Made by a program: the position numbers and the translations under genes
Notes under the pieces: generated by a model
The model's database searches: none
What the model was told of the DNA's origin: nothing
The model's input: only the letters and a program-made list of their open reading frames with translations
In this document: positions 1 to 10,104 of the stretch, piece by piece
Layout: each line of letters begins with the position of its first letter
Position numbering within the stretch: the first letter of the stretch is position 1
NCBI GenBank assembly: GCA_036170655.1
Contig: JAVHPP010000113.1
Span: 1-10,104 of the forward strand
Length of the DNA stretch: 10,104 nucleotides
Direction of reading: 5' to 3'
Origin: Candidatus Zixiibacteriota bacterium
Lineage (GTDB): Bacteria > Zixibacteria > MSB-5A5 > WJJR01

Positions 1-3000
1 ACGGCGATGCCGAGATTGGCGCGCAGTCCGTAGCCGAAGGCGGCACGAATGTCCTGGAGACGGAAGCCGTTCTCGGCCGAGGTCCCACGGAATCTACGAC
101 TGTCAGTCCATGCAGAACCCATATCGGCAAACAGGGCGCCAGCAACCTGTGACAACGCCAGCGGCAACGGGAATCGCAGAGCCAGATAATCCACAAACGG
201 GAAACGGAATTCGGCGTTGAGCAGCGCGTACTTGGTCCCCGCCAGTTCGTAGTAGTTGTATCCGTGGAAGGGCGTGATCACCTGCGAGAAGTAAAGTCCC
301 CCAACTCCATAGACACCGTTGACATCGTTGACATTGGTCCGCGCGATCGTTGAACCGATCCAGTTGTCGACCCCGCCCAAGTAGAACCGCTTGGGGTTTG
401 CTCCACCGGACATCCCGCCGGAAAGGCGCATCGCGAAACTGTAACGTCCCGCGATCCGGGCATACTGCCGGTAGTCGGCCGTCAACGCGCGGTAGGAGAT
501 GCCATCGGACAGTCCGCTGGGAGCGTATTCGAGTGACACGCGATAACGGCTTCCGTTGACCGGACCGGTCATCCCCCAAGATGCGACATCATGGACGAGC
601 GAGAGCGTCCCCAAGCCAACGCGATCACTCTCGTCATTTGCACCGGGAACGCGGTCGATGTAGCGCCGGTCAATGAACAGCATCATGCCGTTGAGCTCGA
701 GCCGCGTAAACTTCGAGAACGGACGCGACACATTCGCGAGGAATCCGTAGGTCCGGTCGGAAAAGAGCCGGTTCTCGAAATCGATGTAATAGTACTTCGA
801 GTGGAAGATCCCCGCGCCGTAGTCGATGCGTTTGGGCGTGTACATGTAGTACACCTGGATGTTCGATTGATCGATGGTGTTGACCAGATCGGTGGCGATG
901 AAGATCTGGTGGTCACCGAGATAATCGGAGATCACGAAGAAGGACTGGCCCTGCACGCCAAAAAACGAACTGTAACCCAGTCCGCCGGTCACCAAGTCGG
1001 GTGAGAATTTCAGTTTGTACTTCTGCACCGGGTATTTTTTTGCCTTCGCGGTATCGGCAGCGGCAAACGTCAGGCTGTCAGGATGTGACGGATGTGCTGC
1101 GGCCGGGACACTTCCTGGGGGTGATTTAGCTCCGGAGGAAATGGCCTTCGTCGTATCGTCCCCCTCAGACGTCATCGCCGGCAACGACGAATCGGGATGC
1201 AACGCTTGCGCATGACTCGTGTCGGCCACATCGGCGCTGTCGGACAGCAGCGGACGGCGCTGAAGCGGTGATTCCGCCTTGCGCACATAGGAGGTGAACT
1301 CCAGATCCTCGTCGAGGATCTTGGGCGCCCGTTCCTCCAGCTCAATTTCATGCTTGAGGACAAAGCTGGCGCTGTCCTGTCCACTCAGCCGTCTGACAAA
1401 AGCGGTCGGCGCCAGGTCTTTCCCATCCCCGATCTGGGGACGAATGTCCTTGATGAGGAACACGTCAAAGCCACCCTTGAAGAAGGCCGTAAAGGCGATT
1501 GATTTGCCATCGGGAGACCAGGACGGCGAGAAACACCCGGACAGCGCGTCCGTGATGGGATATGGCCGTCCGCCAGCCGAGTCGATTACATACAGGTTGT
1601 AGATCCCATTCTTGTTCGAGACATAGCAGATCTTCCGCCCATCCGGCGCGAACGCCGGCGTCTTGTCCTCGGCATCATCGTCGGTCAGCGGATACACGGT
1701 GCGGGAGTTCAGGTCAGCGGCGAAGATATTGTAGCGGCCGTACGGGAATTTAGCCGGGTCCTGAGGTTCGGTCATCAGGAGCGGTGTCGGCTTGTCCGAT
1801 GGACGGTCGCAGGCGAAGACGATGCGTGTGCCGCTGGGATCGAATCTCGGATCCTGTTCATCCCAACGGTCATCGGTCAGGCGTGTCGCCACACCAGAGG
1901 CCATGTCGACCAGATAGAGATCACTACGGTCGTCCCGTCGTGCGGCCACGACGATGGACTTGCCATCTGGGGAGAAGGCGGGGGAACTCATCGAAGAAAA
2001 CCCGAGCCGGAGTGTGCGGTCGTGTCCCTGACGGTCAACATCGACCAGGAACAGCGCATCCGTGCCTTTGGATTTGGCCACCAAGGCCAATGTCGCGCCA
2101 TCCGGTGAGAAGCTCATCCCGGATATGAAGGAATGGAGCGATTCGAACCGGTCCGTGCTGCCGCCTTTCAGTACACGCCTCAACTTCTTCCCGTCGATCG
2201 CGGAGATGATCTTGACCTCGGTGTAATCGGCGCGTTCGCTGAAGATGGCCAGCCGGTCGCCGCGCGGTGAAAAGACGGGCTTGTCATTGAAGTAGGAGCC
2301 GTCTTTCTCGTGGTCGGTCAGTTGCTTCGCAAAATCCTTTGGCTCTTGACGCTGGGAAATTTCGGGCCAGTACTCTTTCTTCAGCCGTTTCTGCCACTCC
2401 TCAGTGAAATCCTTCAGCCCCATCCCGATCGCCTTCTTGAGCGAGTTATCAAGGCTGGATTCAAAGCGGCCCTTGGAGATCACCTCGGGGATCTTTTCCT
2501 CGCCGTACCGTTCCGCGAGATAAAGGATAGCCGACTGGCCCTCTTTGTAGGCCAGGTATCCGCCCACGTATTCGAGCGGCACGAGATACCCATGGACGGT
2601 CGCGTCGCGCAGAACCATATCGGCGAACGTGTCCCAGCCGTGGCGCGATGAATACTCAGCGAATCCCTCCGCATACCACAAGGGGAGTTGGAACAGGGCC
2701 CGTCGCGATAGCATCTGTCCAATCCCGCCGCCGTAGAGCATGTCAAAGACAACCGCGTGGGTCAGCTCATGGTGGAGGACGTGGCGAAAATCCTCGTAGG
2801 ATCCGGTGAAGGGCATGACCATACGGTTCTTGAACGATTCGGTGAACCCACCGACTCCTTCTTCGAGCAGCCCGCCCGTGACGTTCGTCTGCTGAAACTC
2901 ATTGTGCGACTGGTAGAGGATAACGGGCACGCGCTTGTTGAGACGATGATTGAGCTGCGTGGAGACCGTCACATAAGAGGATTCCAGAGTCGTCGCCGCA

Positions 3001-3200
3001 AACACGGCAAGGTCGTAGCCCTCGTCGTAGAAATAGATGTCGAAGTGGTCCGAGGCGATGACGTTCCAGTGGAACTGCTGGTACTGAACTTTGTTCTGGC
3101 CGAATACTTCCCCCTGTCCGGACGCGGACCTCGGGAACAGCAGGAGAATCACGGCCGACAGCATGGCCACGGCAAGTACTCTTGGATTTGGGGTCGTCAT
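1..3200 (-). CDS. Secreted multidomain outer-membrane protein: zinc metallopeptidase (HEXXH, clan MA-like) + PD40/TolB-like beta-propeller + Omp85/BamA-TamA family beta-barrel; 3' end runs off the window
   Basis: Manually translated open frame from ATG 3200 to the window edge, about 1066 codons with no stop seen. N-terminus MTTPNPRVLAVAMLSAVILLLFPRSASG-QGEVFGQNKVQY looks like a Sec signal peptide. Peptidase motifs are VLHHELTHAV (HELTH 2771-2757) and PLWYAEGFAEY (Glu 2669-2667). Six PD40-like repeats: PVFSPRG, MSFSPDG, PAFSPDG, PRFDPSG, PAFAPDG, PSWSPDG. C-terminal Omp85 hallmarks: RFYLGG, FHGY...GTKYALLNAEFRFP, LFADMGSAW, FGYGLR. Confidence 0.9.
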   Translation of the reverse strand, partial: MTTPNPRVLAVAMLSAVILLLFPRSASGQGEVFGQNKVQYQQFHWNVIASDHFDIYFYDEGYDLAVFAATTLESSYVTVSTQLNHRLNKRVPVILYQSHNEFQQTNVTGGLLEEGVGGFTESFKNRMVMPFTGSYEDFRHVLHHELTHAVVFDMLYGGGIGQMLSRRALFQLPLWYAEGFAEYSSRHGWDTFADMVLRDATVHGYLVPLEYVGGYLAYKEGQSAILYLAERYGEEKIPEVISKGRFESSLDNSLKKAIGMGLKDFTEEWQKRLKKEYWPEISQRQEPKDFAKQLTDHEKDGSYFNDKPVFSPRGDRLAIFSERADYTEVKIISAIDGKKLRRVLKGGSTDRFESLHSFISGMSFSPDGATLALVAKSKGTDALFLVDVDRQGHDRTLRLGFSSMSSPAFSPDGKSIVVAARRDDRSDLYLVDMASGVATRLTDDRWDEQDPRFDPSGTRIVFACDRPSDKPTPLLMTEPQDPAKFPYGRYNIFAADLNSRTVYPLTDDDAEDKTPAFAPDGRKICYVSNKNGIYNLYVIDSAGGRPYPITDALSGCFSPSWSPDGKSIAFTAFFKGGFDVFLIKDIRPQIGDGKDLAPTAFVRRLSGQDSASFVLKHEIELEERAPKILDEDLEFTSYVRKAESPLQRRPLLSDSADVADTSHAQALHPDSSLPAMTSEGDDTTKAISSGAKSPPGSVPAAAHPSHPDSLTFAAADTAKAKKYPVQKYKLKFSPDLVTGGLGYSSFFGVQGQSFFVISDYLGDHQIFIATDLVNTIDQSNIQVYYMYTPKRIDYGAGIFHSKYYYIDFENRLFSDRTYGFLANVSRPFSKFTRLELNGMMLFIDRRYIDRVPGANDESDRVGLGTLSLVHDVASWGMTGPVNGSRYRVSLEYAPSGLSDGISYRALTADYRQYARIAGRYSFAMRLSGGMSGGANPKRFYLGGVDNWIGSTIARTNVNDVNGVYGVGGLYFSQVITPFHGYNYYELAGTKYALLNAEFRFPFVDYLALRFPLPLALSQVAGALFADMGSAWTDSRRFRGTSAENGFRLQDIRAAFGYGLRANLGIA

Positions 3201-3292
3201 GTGCGTATTGCAAGGTCGACTGGACCCTGCCAGTCGTATCGTCGCGACTGAGCCGGTGACTGACCAACAGGGAGGCCGCAACCTGAGATTTC

Positions 3293-3317
3293 AACCCCGG
3301 CCGGACAAAATTGTTCC
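3293..3317 (-). promoter_or_regulatory. Candidate ECF-sigma-type promoter (GGAAC-N17-GTT) upstream of the peptidase/PD40/Omp85 gene
   Basis: Minus strand reads GGAAC AATTTTGTCCGGCCGGG GTTGAAA in the 142-bp gap between the murA stop and ATG 3200. Motif and spacing resemble ECF promoters. The motif is short, so a chance match is possible. Confidence 0.4.
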
Positions 3318-3342
3318 AGTGGCAGTTACCGAGTGCGGTCTG

Positions 3343-4608
3343 CTATTCATCCTTTTGCCGCTTGATATCAGCTCCCAAGCGGCCGAGTTTCTCTTCCAAG
3401 CGCTCGTAGCCGCGATCGATATGATAAATACGGAGTATCTCCGACGTTCCTTCCGCCGCCAACGCCACCTCGACGAGACCGGCTCCGGCACGAATATCCG
3501 CCGCCATAACGGTTGCGCCCCGCAGGCGCGGGACACCGGACACACGCGCCTCATTTCCGGTCACACGCACGTCAGCCCCCATACGGACAAACTCCATGGC
3601 GTGGGAGAAACGATTGGGAAATACTGTTTCGGTCATCAAGGACGCACCATCGGCCACGGTCATCAGCGCCAGCGCAGCCGGTTGAAGGTCGGTCGGAAAA
3701 CCGGGGTAGGGAAAGGTGACGATCTGCGCCGGCCAGAGATGGGATGGCCCCTTGACTGTCATCCGCTTCTTGGTCACTGTGATCTGGACGCCCATCTCCT
3801 CGAGCTTGGCGGTCACGGCCTCCAAGTGCGTCGGTTCGACCCCGCGCAACTCAATCGTTCCCTTGGTCATGGCAGCGGCCATCATAAATGTCCCGGCCTC
3901 GAGCCGATCGGGAATTGGCTGATGTTCGGCGCCACGAAGTTTCTTGACGCCACTGATCCGAATCGTCGATGTCCCAGCTCCAGAGACCTTGGCGCCCATC
4001 TTGTTCAGAAAATCGGCGACATCGGCAATCTCAGGGTCACAGGCCGCGTTCACGAGGGCCGTATCACCCGGGACCATCGCCAGCCCGATCATCAGGTTCT
4101 CCGTTCCGGTGTGGGTGGGCCGATCGAATACAAATGTGGTGGCCTTCATCCGCGAGCCGTCACACTTGATGTAGCCGTGATCGTCCTCAAACTGGACACC
4201 GCAGGCCTGGAACCCCTTCAGGTGAAGGTCTACGGGACGCGGTCCAAAAGCGCAGCCGCCCGGCAGCGAGACACGTGCCGCCCGCATGCGCCCCAGAAGA
4301 GCGCCAAGAAACAGAAACGAGGCCCGCATGCGGCGCATGAGATCATAGGGGACATCGTGCGATTTGACTCCCGTGGCGTCGATGGTCAGAACGCGCGATT
4401 TCGGATCGTATGCGGCCTTTCCGCCGAGGTGATTAACGACCGCTACCGCGGTGCGAATGTCCATGAGGTCAGGAATGTCTGTAAGAACAGTCCGGCCGGA
4501 ATCGGCGAGAAGCGCAGCAGCGATGATCGGTAATGTGGCGTTTTTCGACGGAGCGATCACCACCGAGCCCGAAAGCCGCCTGCCGCCCTGAATCACGTAT
4601 TTATCCAA
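3343..4608 (-). CDS. murA: UDP-N-acetylglucosamine 1-carboxyvinyltransferase
   Basis: 421 aa with SKNATLPI, RMRAS, LPGGCAFGPRPVDLH (active-site Cys retained), IPDRLEAGT, YPGFPTDLQ, DIRAGA and HIDRGYE. TTG start preceded by a GAGGA Shine-Dalgarno sequence. Confidence 0.98.
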   Translation of the reverse strand: MDKYVIQGGRRLSGSVVIAPSKNATLPIIAAALLADSGRTVLTDIPDLMDIRTAVAVVNHLGGKAAYDPKSRVLTIDATGVKSHDVPYDLMRRMRASFLFLGALLGRMRAARVSLPGGCAFGPRPVDLHLKGFQACGVQFEDDHGYIKCDGSRMKATTFVFDRPTHTGTENLMIGLAMVPGDTALVNAACDPEIADVADFLNKMGAKVSGAGTSTIRISGVKKLRGAEHQPIPDRLEAGTFMMAAAMTKGTIELRGVEPTHLEAVTAKLEEMGVQITVTKKRMTVKGPSHLWPAQIVTFPYPGFPTDLQPAALALMTVADGASLMTETVFPNRFSHAMEFVRMGADVRVTGNEARVSGVPRLRGATVMAADIRAGAGLVEVALAAEGTSEILRIYHIDRGYERLEEKLGRLGADIKRQKDE

Positions 4609-4667
4609 GGTAATTCCTCAGTTGGCCAATAATCTCAGCGACAGACCATCTCCCTGCCGGTGAAACC

Positions 4668-4696
4668 AATACACACCCGCCCGTGGATTCTGTCAA
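4668..4696 (-). promoter_or_regulatory. Possible sigma70 promoter for murA
   Basis: Perfect TTGACA (4696-4691), 17-bp spacer, then a weak -10 TGTATT (4673-4668) that lacks the conserved second-position A. Confidence 0.3.
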
Positions 4697-4780
4697 GACG
4701 GGATTCCTCTGGCGGCTGGGATTTCATGGTCGTGTTCTCCTCCTTGCCAGATATATATTCGCCCCGTGGCACTCAAGGCG

Positions 4781-5539
4781 ATGACCGACAGCGGGACGAT
4801 CCTCTTCTTCTCCGATGCACATTTCGGCGCTCACGAGCCAGCACAAGAGAGGGAGAAAGAAAGGCGTTTCGAGACGTTTCTTGAACATGCCAGCCGTATC
4901 CACGCCGAAGTGTACTTTCTGGGCGACCTGTTCGATTTCTGGTTCGAGTATCACCACTGGATGCCAAAGGTTTCGATGCGCGTCCTGGCATCGATTCACC
5001 GCTTTACTCAATCGGGCGGGGAACTGCACATGCTCTTGGGCAACCACGACATCTGGGCGGCCACCTATTTTTCTGACCAGCTGGGAGCACATGTCCATCG
5101 TGAGGACATCACGATTGCCCGTCAAGGATTGCGCATTGGGATATCCCATGGCGACGGCCAAGCGCGGTCTGATCGCGGATACCGCGTGTTGAAGCAAATC
5201 CTGCGGTTCGGTCCCAACATCGCGCTGTACCGGCTGCTTCCCGCCGACTGGGCGTATGCCCTCGCACGTTTCTTCTCCGGCCGGTCCCGGCAGTTGACCG
5301 CTTCGCGGCCACCCAAGTTCCTTCTCGAATATGACTGCGTGGCCAGGGATCAAATCGAGGGCGGCTGCTCAGCCGTCATCATGGGCCACATCCACCAGGC
5401 GTGGGTGAAACGGCTGGGAGAAGGCTGGTCGGTGAACACGGGAGAGTTTTTCGAGAAGTTCAACTATGTCGAGCTCGTGGACGGGGAGTTCCATTTGCGA
5501 TCTTGGAATCCCAATCCCCAGCCCACAGCTCTCCCTTAG
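4781..5539 (+). CDS. lpxH: UDP-2,3-diacylglucosamine diphosphatase-like calcineurin-type metallophosphoesterase (LpxH family)
   Basis: Motifs SDAHFG, LGDLFDFWFEY, GNHD, SHGD, DRGYRVLKQILR, MGHIH and VNTG in the expected order. About 252 aa from ATG 4781; an in-frame GTG at 4766 is an alternative start. Confidence 0.85.
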   Translation: MTDSGTILFFSDAHFGAHEPAQEREKERRFETFLEHASRIHAEVYFLGDLFDFWFEYHHWMPKVSMRVLASIHRFTQSGGELHMLLGNHDIWAATYFSDQLGAHVHREDITIARQGLRIGISHGDGQARSDRGYRVLKQILRFGPNIALYRLLPADWAYALARFFSGRSRQLTASRPPKFLLEYDCVARDQIEGGCSAVIMGHIHQAWVKRLGEGWSVNTGEFFEKFNYVELVDGEFHLRSWNPNPQPTALP

Positions 5540-7005
5540 AACGAGATACCCAGTTGATCGATCACGGTTAGGACGCTGCCGACCCCCAGCACTTGCAGCC
5601 TGACACCCGGCGGTATTCCCATCGGTGACGTGCAATACGCCCAATCACCACCTGCGGCGACAATGCCGAGCAATCCGGACGGACCGAGCCGGCGTGCCAG
5701 CGCCATATCGAGCACCGAACCACCGGCGTTGACAATTGTCTCCAGCCATCCCCGACGCTGCGCCAGCCGGTAGATGGACGGCGTCGCGGGGACGACCAGC
5801 AAGGGCCACTCCGGGGCGATCCTTCGTCCCCGCAGCATCTCTGCCACCGCTTGGATCTCATAGGGCAAGGCGTCCGGGCCAATCAGTGCGCCACCTGGTT
5901 GGAGATCGTGTGAGGGGACGATCTCATCCCTTCCGTCACCCCACCTCAACAGGACACGGGGCTCGATCCCCCGGCCCTCGATGAAATGCTCTCCATCGTA
6001 GATGGCTACACGGTCAGGGTGGCATTGCGGGAAATGGCCCTTCAGCAATCCGACAAAATGGCGGCGGATGACGTCATCGAAGGGACAGAGCGCAGACTGA
6101 GCACCAAATGCGACTGCCAGCGAGGACAGCTTGACCTTCCGATCCAGTGACAGGTGTTCGATTGGACCACCGAGGAACTCGACAACGGAGTTGCCCCAAT
6201 CCCGGTCAATCTGACGCGCCAGGATCGCAATGATGATGTCTTCGACGTCGCATCGTGACGGAATCTTGCGGGTGATTTCGATCTTGATGGTTCGCGGGGC
6301 TTGGCGGGCGGACTCCACCGGGAGCGCCAGACACGCGATCCCGCCCACGCCCGGGGCGGTCCCGGACGGCCCCACCAGCAGGCACCCAGGGAGCACCGCG
6401 CGGGACTCGACAATCTGCCAAGCAAACGAACCGAAGTCGGGGGAGATCCAGACCGGAACTCGAATCTCTCCGGCCGACAGTGCTTCGGGCTGGGGCGCCG
6501 ACCGGGGCCACTCGACCGTAGGGCCGGGAATCAACGCGACGGCCATTCCCGACTTGTCAGTTGGCACAGCAAACCGCCAGTCAGCGGCAACTTCGGCACC
6601 GGGCCATTCAGCCTGGCACCGGTGCCAAATCTTCTTCGTAGCTGTCAGGTTTGGTGTGGTTGCAGGGGACTCGAACTCTGTGCCCTCTCCCGGCAGGCGC
6701 AACTCCAGTTGCTCGAGTTTGAGGAACGAAGGGCGGTCCGTGATTTCATACTTGCGACGCCAACTGTAGAACGCCGCCTTGGAGATGTTCAATTCCCGCC
6801 CACAACGGAAGTCATCACCGTAGCGTGCCCAAAGCTCCGCAACCTGCTCTTGAGTGAACTTCGGGGCGCTGAAACGCGGAATCCCCTTCTTGCGACGCCA
6901 GTACGCAACAAGATACTCAGGGACATCGAGCGCCTCAGCGATACGGGCATCGGTCTTATAGAGAGACTGGAGATGCTCCAGTTCGATTTTCCGCGGAACT
7001 TTCAT
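5536..7005 (-). CDS. Tandem helix-turn-helix domains fused to a degenerate 3-isopropylmalate dehydratase/homoaconitase large-subunit (aconitase family) domain; predicted catalytically inactive
   Basis: 489 aa from ATG 7005 (507 aa from ATG 7059). Two repeats end in YWRRKKGI and SWRRKYEI. The remainder is collinear with LeuC/HacA: LTATKKI, VLPGCLLVG, PRTIKIEIT, VEFLGGPIEHLSLDRKVKLSSLAVAFGAQS, IEPRV, AEMLRGRRIAP, LLVVPATPSIYRLAQRRGWLETIVNAGG. Catalytic motifs are replaced. Confidence 0.85.
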   Translation of the reverse strand: MKVPRKIELEHLQSLYKTDARIAEALDVPEYLVAYWRRKKGIPRFSAPKFTQEQVAELWARYGDDFRCGRELNISKAAFYSWRRKYEITDRPSFLKLEQLELRLPGEGTEFESPATTPNLTATKKIWHRCQAEWPGAEVAADWRFAVPTDKSGMAVALIPGPTVEWPRSAPQPEALSAGEIRVPVWISPDFGSFAWQIVESRAVLPGCLLVGPSGTAPGVGGIACLALPVESARQAPRTIKIEITRKIPSRCDVEDIIIAILARQIDRDWGNSVVEFLGGPIEHLSLDRKVKLSSLAVAFGAQSALCPFDDVIRRHFVGLLKGHFPQCHPDRVAIYDGEHFIEGRGIEPRVLLRWGDGRDEIVPSHDLQPGGALIGPDALPYEIQAVAEMLRGRRIAPEWPLLVVPATPSIYRLAQRRGWLETIVNAGGSVLDMALARRLGPSGLLGIVAAGGDWAYCTSPMGIPPGVRLQVLGVGSVLTVIDQLGISF

Positions 7006-7077
7006 GTATGATCTGGTAGTGGGACGATGCAAACCCGGGCACCAGCCCAAGTCTCTCATTCGTCATCGCTTTCTGTA

Positions 7078-7106
7078 AATCTACAGCAACACAGAACGGA
7101 ATTCAA
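7078..7106 (-). promoter_or_regulatory. Candidate sigma70 promoter for the HTH-aconitase-like gene
   Basis: Minus strand TTGAAT (7106-7101), 17-bp spacer, TAGATT (7083-7078), in the relatively AT-rich gap downstream of the HIT gene. Confidence 0.6.
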
Positions 7107-7215
7107 CGCTCAGAAGAGAGAGAAAGAAGATTTCCCGCAGTGCAAAGATCCTGTGACCCAGCCGCTTATGGGAATGGTCATAGCAAGGCCGACAATCGAC
7201 CGATCTCCAATTGTA

Positions 7216-7743
7216 TCAACCAGATCGGCCCGCCGATGACGGGCCGGATTTTCGCGGACGCAATGGTCGCCGAAAGGCGGCCTTCAGCTTTCGGCAAACA
7301 TTGGGGAGGCTGACTGACACAACGCGCGTCTTGAAGAGCGCAGGCATGAAGTTGGTATCACCGACCCATCGCGGTACAAGATGAACATGGAGATGACCGG
7401 CGATTCCGGCCCCGCCGGCACGGCCCAGATTCATCCCCAAGTTCATTCCCTCGGGTTTGAGTGTCTCATTCAGGACACGAGAGGAAAGTGCGATCAGGGC
7501 CATGATTTCGTTGCGCTCAGATCCGGACAGATCCTCCAGATTGGCAACATGACGATTGGGGACGATCATCAGATGGCCCGAGTTGTAGGGATAGCGATTC
7601 AGCACGACAAACGCACGTTTTCCGCGATACAGGATCAAGTCACGGATGGCACGGTGCGTCTCGGAGGCACAGAATATACATCCTTGTTCTTTCGGGCCGA
7701 GAATGAACTCCTCGCGCCAGGGGGCATACAGGAAATCCGTCAT
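7216..7743 (-). CDS. HIT (histidine triad) family protein, Ap4A phosphorylase/hydrolase-like
   Basis: 175 aa with N-terminal LYAPWR, CIFC, LNRYPYNSGHLMIVP, NLGRAGGAGI, the triad HLHVHLVPRW and GDTNFMP. GAGGTG sits just upstream of the ATG. Confidence 0.95.
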   Translation of the reverse strand: MTDFLYAPWREEFILGPKEQGCIFCASETHRAIRDLILYRGKRAFVVLNRYPYNSGHLMIVPNRHVANLEDLSGSERNEIMALIALSSRVLNETLKPEGMNLGMNLGRAGGAGIAGHLHVHLVPRWVGDTNFMPALFKTRVVSVSLPNVCRKLKAAFRRPLRPRKSGPSSAGRSG

Positions 7744-7826
7744 TTCACCTCACAGGTGAGTGTGGCTGGCCGACCGCATGGCTCGTACCGCACCGGGAAT
7801 ATAGACTGTCGCCCTGTCCTCTCGCA

Positions 7827-9308
7827 TCAGTTTCCCGCGCCGTGTCTTTCTAGCAGGGCCACGGCCTCCACATGGGGTGTATGGGGAAACATATCGACAG
7901 CGGAGAGCGCTGCCAGCCGGTAGGCAGTCTTCATCATCTCGAGATCGCGCGCAAGTGCGGCCGGATTACACGACACATAAACAATGCGAGGAGGCTTGAC
8001 CTGGATCAGGGTCTTGACGGCTTTGGGATGCAACCCCGCACGCGGAGGATCGATCACAACGGGAGGAAATGGTTCCCCCGTTCCGGCTCGATGCCGCAGG
8101 TATTCAAGCACATCCGCCACGACGAATTCACAATTGGTGATACCGTTGCACCGTGCGTTGTGGACACCGGCTTCTGTCGACTCCGGGTGGACCTCGACGG
8201 CCGTCACGTGGGAGAATCGCTTCGACAGAAAAAGCGATATCGCGCCTGCGCCGGAGTACAAGTCGAGAATCTCGTCCTCCGATGGCGCAATGCCTGAGGA
8301 AACAGCGCCCGAGGCAAACTCCACGACCTGGTGGAACAACCGCTCCGCCTGACGTGTATTGACCTGAAAGAAACCCATCGGGGCAATCTCGAACTCAAAT
8401 GGCCCCAACCGCTCTCTCAGGTCGCCCCGGCCATAGAACACCGTGTGAATCTCACCGCCAGCAACATTCGCGCGTCCGGAATTGATCGTCCAGAGTGCGG
8501 TCGTGACTTCGGGACAGGTCTTCAAGAGATGCTCGCGAAATTCTTCGGCACGCGGCCAAGGGCAGTCGGCTGTTATGAGGTTGACGAGCATTTCTCCCGT
8601 GTTCACTCCAAGCCGTACCACACAGAATCGCAAGAAGCCGGTGTGCCGGGCCGGGTGATACGGCGCCTCATCACTCTGTGCAAAGAAATTTCGAACTGAA
8701 CTGACGACTCCGCCGACGCGTTCGTCGGTCAGCCAGCATTCCTCCAGATTGAATGCATCCATGAAGTTCTCACGCGGATGCAGGCCCAGATGCAGCGCAT
8801 CGCCAAGACCGCCGCCGAACGAGAACTCCATTTTGTTGCGATAGCGGAAAGGAGGATCGCAGGCGAGCGCCTCGATGGGGGGCGGGTCATCGATCTTGCC
8901 GATCCGGCGGATCTGCTCGCGCAGATGCCGAACCTTGTCCGCCAGCTGCTGGTGATACTCCAAGTCCTGCAGACGGCACCCGCCGCACAGCCCGAAATGC
9001 CGGCAGGCCGGCTCGATGCGGTGCGGTGATGGCGTGACGACCGCCAATAGATCGGCCATCATGTGCCGCTTACGACGTCCGGTGATGCGGGCGCGAACCA
9101 CATCACCTGGCAATCCGCGATCGGTTAGCACGACCATCCGGCCGACGCGGGCGATGCCGCAGCCCTTGTCGCCCCAATCATCGATAGTCAGTTCGGCGAT
9201 CTCCCCCATGCGGGGAAGCCCTGAAGACGAGGGATCTCGAACGAGAGATTCTGCGGGAGAAGATTCTGTCTGATTCACGGGGGATAAGATACAGGTCAGC
9301 CGCGTCAA
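7827..9308 (-). CDS. rlmD: 23S rRNA (uracil-5-)-methyltransferase, RlmD/RumA family
   Basis: TRAM-like N-terminus, Fe-S motif CRHFGLCGGC plus a distal Cys (EECW), YRNKMEF, FFQVN, DLYSGAG, IDPPRAG, catalytic YVSCNP and VDMFPHTPHVE. Start is uncertain (TTG 9308, GTG 9278 or ATG 9209). Confidence 0.95.
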   Translation of the reverse strand: MTRLTCILSPVNQTESSPAESLVRDPSSSGLPRMGEIAELTIDDWGDKGCGIARVGRMVVLTDRGLPGDVVRARITGRRKRHMMADLLAVVTPSPHRIEPACRHFGLCGGCRLQDLEYHQQLADKVRHLREQIRRIGKIDDPPPIEALACDPPFRYRNKMEFSFGGGLGDALHLGLHPRENFMDAFNLEECWLTDERVGGVVSSVRNFFAQSDEAPYHPARHTGFLRFCVVRLGVNTGEMLVNLITADCPWPRAEEFREHLLKTCPEVTTALWTINSGRANVAGGEIHTVFYGRGDLRERLGPFEFEIAPMGFFQVNTRQAERLFHQVVEFASGAVSSGIAPSEDEILDLYSGAGAISLFLSKRFSHVTAVEVHPESTEAGVHNARCNGITNCEFVVADVLEYLRHRAGTGEPFPPVVIDPPRAGLHPKAVKTLIQVKPPRIVYVSCNPAALARDLEMMKTAYRLAALSAVDMFPHTPHVEAVALLERHGAGN

Positions 9309-9330
9309 TGCAAGTAGGTCGACCTGATGC

Positions 9331-10104
9331 TCATCGGGACGATGGCCGAAAACGCCGCAAGCGCAGCGAGTTGGTCAGCACGAACACGGACGAGAATGCC
9401 ATCGTAGCGGCCGCGATCATCGGCGAGAGCTGAAATCCAAACGCCGGATAGAGAGCGCCGGCCGCGATGGGAATAGCCGCAACATTGTAGAAGAAGGCCC
9501 AGAAAAGATTCCCACGGATGGTCGCCAGAGTGCGCTTGCCCAAGTCGACACCATCGGCAATGGCGGAAGCACGTGTGCCCAGTACCGTGATGTCGGCGGC
9601 TTCCTTGGCGACATCGGTGCCCGTGCCCATGGCGATTCCCAAGTCGGCGGCGGCCAAAGCCGGGGCGTCGTTGATCCCATCCCCGACCATCGCCACCTTG
9701 TGATGTTTCTGCTGACGTTCCTTGACGATGCGCAGTTTGTCCTCAGGACGGACCTCGGCGATGCTCTCGTCAACCCCCAGTTCACGTCCCACGGCTTCGA
9801 CAGCGGCACGCCGGTCACCCGAGAGGAGGACTGTTCGCCAGCCGTGCGCCTTCAAGCGGGCGATTGTGACGCTGGCTCCTTCTTTCAGCCGGTCACCGAT
9901 GGCGAGCGCTCCCGCCAACTGGTCACCCTTTGCCACGAGGCCGACGGTGTGCCCCGACGCCGTCCACTGGGACAGCAGGGGCGAAACCCGTTCGAGGGAG
10001 ACACCCGACTCCGCCATCCACACGGATGAGCCAATACGCCAATGTGCGCCATCGATCACGCCTTCGATCCCTTTCCCGGACAGGGCCTGAAAACCAGTAA
10101 CGGA
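9331..10104 (-). CDS. copA: Heavy-metal-translocating P1B-type ATPase, probably Cu(I)-exporting; 5' part lies beyond the window
   Basis: Frame is open to the right edge (SVTGFQALSGKGIEGV...). Motifs LSGD, PEDK, MVGDGINDAPALAAAD, GTDVAKEAADI, NLFWAFFYN and MAFSS. The YN and MxxSS pair is characteristic of the P1B-1 Cu(I) subgroup; the CPC and DKTGT motifs are outside the window. Confidence 0.88.
   Translation of the reverse strand, partial: SVTGFQALSGKGIEGVIDGAHWRIGSSVWMAESGVSLERVSPLLSQWTASGHTVGLVAKGDQLAGALAIGDRLKEGASVTIARLKAHGWRTVLLSGDRRAAVEAVGRELGVDESIAEVRPEDKLRIVKERQQKHHKVAMVGDGINDAPALAAADLGIAMGTGTDVAKEAADITVLGTRASAIADGVDLGKRTLATIRGNLFWAFFYNVAAIPIAAGALYPAFGFQLSPMIAAATMAFSSVFVLTNSLRLRRFRPSSR

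Follow-up and report, generated by a model that had tools for sequence, protein, structure and literature searches.

What would a cell do with a DNA-binding head mounted on an enzyme that has lost its active site? The question is raised by a 10,104-nucleotide stretch of Candidatus Zixiibacteriota DNA (contig JAVHPP010000113.1, positions 1 to 10,104; hereafter the window). Its reverse-strand gene P0001 (5536..7005) encodes a protein of 489 residues that combines two N-terminal helix-turn-helix (HTH) units, a candidate sliding-clamp-binding hexamer and a catalytically dead body of the LeuC/HacA type, as judged from the open reading frame, Pfam, NCBIfam, AlphaFold and Foldseek. The reading that we prefer, at a probability of about 45%, is a clamp-docking DNA-binding regulator on an enzyme turned scaffold. 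An initial annotation had described the window as holding a tandem-HTH protein fused to a dead dehydratase. It is supported in part, and it missed both the fixed link to an upstream HIT gene and the clamp-motif hexamer.

The HTH head, the LeuC/HacA body and its intact relatives

The frame from 7005 to 5536 is open throughout, as initially annotated. With an upstream ATG at 7059 as the start, the protein would have 507 residues, but homologues begin at the methionine equivalent to 7005. The AlphaFold model of the 489-residue protein has a predicted local distance difference test score (pLDDT) of 91.7, with low confidence in the linker (pLDDT below 50 at residues 102–114). All features of the fusion gene described below lie on the reverse strand.

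The two HTH-like repeats first proposed appear in the structure models as two three-helix units within residues 6–85. The first unit covers residues 5–42 (6880..6993; mean conservation 0.79) and the second residues 49–88 (6742..6861; mean conservation 0.80). Sequence matches of the head to HTH families are weak (Pfam E 0.004–0.24, including HTH_Tnp_1 at E 0.004 for the second unit, below the cut-off), and no named HTH family passes the Pfam cut-off or emerges by fold search. Structural matches are to generic HTH proteins, the best with a Z score of 6.4 and a root-mean-square deviation of 2.1 over 43 aligned residues; tandem homeodomains and Mos1 are matched at E 0.03–0.06 in the fold search. 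The models and the alignment reveal tri-helical units with conserved recognition helices, from which we infer that the head binds DNA.

Several unnamed proteins (P0152, P0158, P0159, P0168, P0183, P0189, P0214, P0223 and P0250) carry from several to about 12 tandem HTH repeats of the head type, and these tandem-repeat proteins are a likely source family of the head. A 106-residue protein, P0147, encoded on a 58-kb JGI contig, has two HTH units, stops at the clamp-type hexamer and carries no enzyme body. It is possibly a stand-alone head but could also be a broken gene; no second example or locus of this kind was found. Searches of viral contigs revealed no relatives of the fusion, and a search of the ESM Atlas with residues 1–115 gave no usable match.

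The body comprises the C-terminal 370 residues (5539..6651). It matches the Pfam aconitase family PF00330 above the cut-off (E 1.7e-13), its best NCBIfam matches are archaeal-type LeuC/HacA (PRK00402, E 4.8e-20), and the top three Foldseek hits are Methanocaldococcus jannaschii MJ0499 and MJ1003 (E 1.8e-20 to 4.5e-18), so that the LeuC/HacA fold named in the initial annotation is borne out. According to both Pfam and Foldseek, the body contains aconitase domains 1–3 only, and the swivel domain is missing. Its NCBIfam score of 71.6 bits against a curated cut-off of 385 places it outside the active LeuC/HacA family.

When the body is aligned with the intact LeuC of the same genome, none of 19 scored active-site positions is kept. 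The three cysteines that ligate the [4Fe-4S] cluster are all absent from this protein, and not one of them occurs in any of 51 close homologues, whereas 39 of 39 canonical LeuC controls have all three. The DSH and NRN catalytic and substrate motifs are absent as well (the controls were picked on DSH, which makes that column circular for them). The altered motifs noted initially, at residues 213–216, 374–378 and 431–441, do align with the DSH, first-cysteine and CxxC positions of intact LeuC. As had been suspected, the first subdomain is shortened, with a gap at the DH column in all 51 close homologues. No substitute cysteine cluster is apparent: of the eight cysteines only Cys-68 and Cys-307 are kept in more than half of the clade, and Cys-307 is the sole body cysteine so kept at a position that this protein also has.

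No gene for the LeuD small subunit is present in the window, as first stated, and no extra or dead LeuD was found elsewhere in the genome. The genome does separately encode an intact LeuC-LeuD pair, an aconitase and a homoaconitase, and its LeuD adjoins its own intact LeuC. The stand-alone LeuC/LeuD-type pair (G000:C184:21889-23648 and C125:23227-24033) has no pathway neighbors that we could see, and the genome carries a single gene resembling LeuA or homocitrate synthase.

The gene is under purifying selection and is not decaying. For 36 locus pairs with unsaturated synonymous divergence (dS), some of them duplicates in which the same gene appears under two identifiers, the head has a median ratio of nonsynonymous to synonymous divergence (dN/dS) of 0.023 and the body one of 0.14. 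Pairs from the protein's own family give head and body values of 0.023 and 0.069, 0.008 and 0.077, and 0.065 and 0.22; dS between the window and its nearest relatives is near saturation. The conserved positions of the body are fold residues together with new basic residues. Arg-314, Arg-315, Arg-332 and Arg-418 have been gained in the family and are rare in canonical LeuC. The positions that once bound substrate show no conservation and vary between lineages.

The intact-to-dead gradient that the initial annotation had predicted among homologues was found, both in trees and by motif scoring of 65 loci chosen across 19 families (a non-random set biased to high scores). In five families (f4, f14, f15, f16 and f17), all 18 loci have the same head joined to a body with complete DSHT, GSCTN, CxxC and NRNF motifs, and an intact LeuD follows the fusion in each of them. 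Two intact fusions that were scanned, from f15 and f4, score 579 and 593 bits against the cut-off of 385. Many f10 members and one of the two f19 members keep the three cysteines without the catalytic residues, several of them with a degenerate LeuD. The f12 body is dead, yet two of three loci have an intact LeuD, and the remaining loci have a dead body and no LeuD nearby. The family had at first seemed to be dead in all lineages, a view that was rejected; it was a sampling effect of the dead query and was corrected by the 65-locus set.

Some individual loci illustrate the intermediate states. Intact LeuD genes directly follow fully dead f12 fusions at L029:7642-8163, L031:4639-5139 and L078:4442-4939. 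Degenerate LeuD genes without the catalytic-serine motif lie near dead fusions at L032:3976-4479, L035:3847-4305 and L062:3877-4368, and further pseudo-LeuD genes of this kind at L076:3056-3544, L089:2327-2815 (opposite strand) and L066:7827-8312.

In the trees, all of the fused bodies group together to the exclusion of stand-alone LeuC (support 0.99; SH-aLRT 99.9), with the dead copies on long branches. The monophyly of the fused bodies indicates a single fusion event. Outside its own order, identity to the query protein is 50–70% in the head against 17–23% in the body. The intact families are no exception, at 54–60% in the head, similar to the dead families, and 20–23% in the body. Because the head is as conserved in intact families as in dead ones, its job must predate the death of the enzyme; whether the enzyme is alive or dead makes no difference to the function of the head.

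The clamp-type hexamer and the HIT partner

The best-conserved stretch of the protein is neither an HTH unit nor part of the body but residues 95–104 (conservation 0.86), which end at a variable linker of 9–24 residues. Within it, residues 99–104 (6694..6711) form a candidate hexapeptide sliding-clamp-binding motif. The pattern Q-phi-x-(L/F/I)-x-(L/F/I) is present in 142 of 142 homologues and in 65 of 65 of the family-spanning set; Gln-99 is invariant, and positions 98, 101 and 103 vary. The hexamer matches the hexapeptide clamp consensus Q-phi-x-L-x-L (bioRxiv 10.64898/2026.05.27.728225), is conserved, and lies beside a flexible region. Measured against motifs given in the same preprint, the f18 hexamer is one substitution from that of Hda, and the f10, f14 and f16 variants are one substitution from that of Pol IV.

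Complex models of residues 1–115 with the DnaN clamp of the same genome, encoded on contig C22, scored 0.70, 0.70 and 0.72, and the best of three controls scored 0.00. The mark used for such models is reached by 116 of 157 solved pairs and 2 of 215 mismatched pairs, counts that are only a rough guide for our own alignments. Contacts agree to at least 87% between runs, the pLDDT of the partner docked on DnaN is at least 75, and its contacts fall on residues 94 and 96–107 plus three single residues. The best-supported contacts pair residues 98–104 with DnaN residues 170–175, 246, 320, 344–346 and 363–368, which we take to be the canonical cleft. The contacted DnaN residues are mostly invariant in 27 clamps of the phylum.

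The fusion is a single-copy core gene of the Zixibacteria. A head-only profile built from 30 rows matches 265 of 285 Zixibacteria genomes, 194 of the 198 good ones and 19 of 20 families, with one copy per genome except for one genome that has a second, partial match. Outside the phylum, none of 116 sampled genomes matches the head. Among 80 of 158 matches listed, titles and names point to Zixibacteria, with some to Ignavibacteria, Calditrichota and Acidobacteriota. A tally of 280 of 285 genomes obtained with a full-length profile was rejected, as this profile also matches canonical LeuC, and the head alone was used instead.

A HIT-family gene (7216..7743, reverse strand) precedes the fusion gene as its upstream partner. 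In 79 of 81 loci such a gene immediately precedes the fusion in the same orientation, the other two loci being cut by contig ends, and it is found upstream in 64 of the 65 family-spanning loci. Spacing was measured in 78 cases: 42 overlap, 23 lie within 50 base pairs (bp) and 13 are more than 100 bp apart, the window (210 bp) among them. Co-translation of the fusion with HIT does not hold for every locus. The closest solved relatives of the HIT protein include a mycobacterial diadenosine tetraphosphate (Ap4A) phosphorylase (E 4e-32); its best family is NF052622, although its 132.6 bits are below the curated cut-off of 290. Apart from HIT and LeuD, no neighbor is general across families. By way of analogy only, HINT1, a HIT protein of eukaryotes, retains a transcription factor in a manner that depends on Ap4A (PMC7705103). 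At three metagenome loci an SbcD/SbcC-like pair of phosphoesterase and ATPase genes, named by eye, lies directly upstream of HIT (L162:52-3262, L163:153-3378 and L164:189-3405).

Possible roles of the fusion protein

In the preferred reading, one ancient fusion would have joined the head to an active large subunit of a LeuC/HacA-type dehydratase, in an operon of HIT, fusion and LeuD. Five families would keep this apparently active form, and most families, this genome included, would have lost the Fe-S site and LeuD and retained the body as a folded scaffold. The scaffold may serve in oligomerization or offer a basic surface to nucleic acid, a nucleotide or the HIT partner. The hexamer would dock the protein on the clamp, and its output would be transcriptional. 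A bolder version, which we regard as improbable, is a chromosomal regulator of transcription, present across the phylum, that travels on the replication clamp and derives from an active Fe-S dehydratase. It would couple Fe-S or amino-acid-pathway status, and Ap4A turnover by bound HIT, to expression at passing forks, and all stages of the series (active enzyme, cluster-only sensor, bare scaffold) would be extant in one phylum.

Several points weigh against a clamp-docking regulator. The DnaN model indicates fit, not binding, and its score may reflect memory, because clamp-peptide complexes have been solved many times. The hexamer pattern was defined after the sequences had been viewed, and the family sets were collected with motif-containing queries. 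Hexamers of this kind are common by chance, with 278 in the 761,175 residues of the genome's open frames. Residues 92–98 are conserved like the motif and are helical in the monomer models, so the stretch may have a structural role. Hexapeptides are reported to bind the Bacillus subtilis clamp weakly (bioRxiv 10.64898/2026.05.27.728225). Family f13 appears to be without the fusion gene, which is therefore not universal, and in both f13 genomes HIT lies in a different gene neighborhood. No operator was found in a search for palindromes of 23–28 bp, and the sole conserved upstream motif persists in genomes without the gene. Finally, the data do not separate transcription from replication or repair as the output.

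A replication or repair factor docked on the clamp would use the same hexamer and fit the same DnaN model. Its HTH pair would sit on origin, fork or damaged DNA, and it would control DnaA activity or clamp use, or bring HIT to forks. The single-copy core behavior of the gene and the lack of an identified operator are compatible with such a role. There is a precedent in Hda, which carries an N-terminal hexapeptide clamp motif (PMC5397184), a blastp search of this genome revealed no DnaA paralogue of the Hda kind, and a review ties Ap4A to replication in eukaryotes (PMC7705103). However, the protein has no AAA+ or nuclease domain, neighbors besides HIT and LeuD are unconserved across families, and the gene is missing from f13; we consider this role unlikely, if a serious contender. 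A one-component transcription factor in which the dead LeuC pocket senses a metabolite and the hexamer is merely structural is also doubtful, and slightly more so. Tandem HTH units on an enzyme fold are the usual design of enzyme-derived regulators such as NrtR, PurR, FapR and MocR; the body is under purifying selection, and the several f10 and f19 members with three cysteines but no catalytic residues look as an Fe-S sensor would. Against this, body conservation lies in the fold and the new basic residues and not in the former substrate-binding positions, and the hexamer fits the clamp consensus in all its variants and docks in the model. The ligand-sensing role given to the dead body in the initial annotation loses ground, with the old pocket unconserved and the head equally conserved where the enzyme is intact.

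An RNA-binding regulator that resembles apo-aconitase/IRP1 and is locked in the apo state seems highly improbable. IRP1 binds RNA through its swivel domain, and this domain, the equivalent of LeuD, is missing from the copy in this genome; the HTH pair and the hexamer would also be left unexplained. It would, on the other hand, suit the family-specific Arg and Lys residues gained on the body and the mRNA binding described for apo-aconitases (PMC6978683), and yeast Aco1p is found in nucleoids (PMC6124551). That the protein still works as a dehydratase subunit together with the separate LeuD of the genome, or else comes from a decaying gene, is largely refuted, even though relatives are intact in five families and the genome does have a LeuD. 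This LeuD follows an intact LeuC of its own, the Fe-S ligands and catalytic residues are all gone, and among the body cysteines of the protein only Cys-307 is kept in more than half of the clade; the frames are open, and dN/dS of the body is 0.07–0.24 in the protein's own family.

Among known systems, the fusion shares its body fold with archaeal-type LeuC/HacA (MJ0499, MJ1003; PRK00402, TIGR01343, TIGR02086), and its intact relatives likewise adjoin LeuD. The fusion adds the N-terminal HTH pair and the clamp-type hexamer, and the copy studied here lacks the Fe-S ligands, the catalytic residues and a LeuD partner gene, and has a shortened first subdomain. HTH domains fused to an active or dead enzyme fold are known from NrtR, PurR and FapR. 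To our knowledge, no trigger enzyme or enzyme-derived regulator has an aconitase fold or a clamp motif, and we found none. The trigger enzymes PutA and BirA are of this general design (PMC6978683), but the fusion family keeps active and dead states in one phylum. Apo-aconitase/IRP1 and yeast Aco1p (PMC6978683, PMC6124551) likewise give the aconitase fold a catalysis-independent role with nucleic acid; they are described as whole four-domain enzymes without an HTH, whereas the fusion body has no swivel domain.

The phage activators Mor and MuC are DNA-binding proteins with clamp motifs that they need for transcription (PMC12867686). They belong to phages, have pentapeptide motifs and have no enzyme body; the fusion is chromosomal, single-copy and core, with tandem HTH units and a hexapeptide. 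Mor appeared in the fold search with the head at E 1.3 only, and no homology was seen, although none was specifically tested for. Hda (PMC5397184) and the transposases that bind the clamp (PMC3971601) are further cases of a short clamp motif on a regulatory or DNA-binding protein, and transposase heads have weak HTH similarity to the fusion head. Unlike these, the fusion has no AAA+ or DDE domain and is fixed and vertically inherited. It functions like an enzyme-derived regulator and like Mor/MuC, we propose, while being a member of neither group. Literature searches combining Zixibacteria with aconitase, helix-turn-helix or sliding clamp, and searches on pseudoenzymes and trigger enzymes, returned no description of it, with subscription journals little covered.

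Clamp-dependent transcription has been reported for phages T4 and Mu, and a single-copy cellular core gene built in this way would demonstrate its use by bacteria themselves. The family also provides a rare complete series from enzyme to pseudoenzyme behind one head: intact with LeuD in five families, cluster ligands only, and fully dead. In databases this phylum marker goes under the names aconitase or isopropylmalate dehydratase, and metabolic reconstructions of Zixibacteria are misled as a result. A link between metabolism and chromosome replication that has not been described before is suggested.

Upstream DNA and neighboring genes

The gap before the fusion gene holds a candidate sigma70-type promoter (7078..7106, reverse strand), with a −35 box at 7106–7101, a 17-bp spacer and a −10 box at 7083–7078. 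The claim that the gene has its own promoter gains from equivalents seen by eye in 13 loci with a gap above 100 bp; the window promoter itself scores 8 of 12 by hand and was missed by a scan with a threshold of 9. In most other loci a sigma70-like promoter lies just before the HIT start codon, again by eye. In most families among L024–L089, the −10 box is only a few bases ahead of that codon, which suggests a leaderless mRNA.

Motif discovery in 70 non-redundant upstream regions further revealed a 25-bp palindrome, YAA-N4-YTG-N5-CAR-N4-TTR, that is present in about 89% of them (log-likelihood 251–260 against 49–61 in resampled controls). It is centered 42–46 bp before the −35 box in 30 of 58 scored sites. 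The copy in the window (7144..7168; 13.4 bits) has its center 50 bp upstream of the −35 box. Genome-wide there are 54 sites of at least 14 bits against 1–8 for permuted matrices, and two genomes without the fusion gene, G203 and G204, have 18 and 16 against 1 and 2. We considered the palindrome as an operator of the fusion protein and rejected it on these grounds: it is genome-wide, it is abundant without the gene, and each half is a core site of integration host factor (IHF). It is probably an IHF-type site, presumably a symmetric one. The only HU/IHF protein of the genome, encoded on C140, matches IHF models best, below the cut-off. As there is a single IHF-like gene, IHF probably acts here as a homodimer and recognizes a symmetric site. 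About 50–100 palindrome sites were seen per genome (G000, G203, G204, G241, G107 and G263), most of them between genes (in G000, 48 of the 78 top sites) and some upstream of rpoN-, lon-, parA/parB- and ribonucleotide-reductase-like genes.

Elsewhere in the window, an LpxH-like phosphoesterase gene (4766–5539, forward strand) converges on the fusion gene, and their stop codons overlap by 4 bp. Its other genes are murA (3343–4608), rlmD (7827–9308), a P-type ATPase (9331–10104) and, on the reverse strand and cut by the contig end, a gene for a large protein with a peptidase MA-like domain, a TolB-like propeller and an Omp85 barrel (3–3281).

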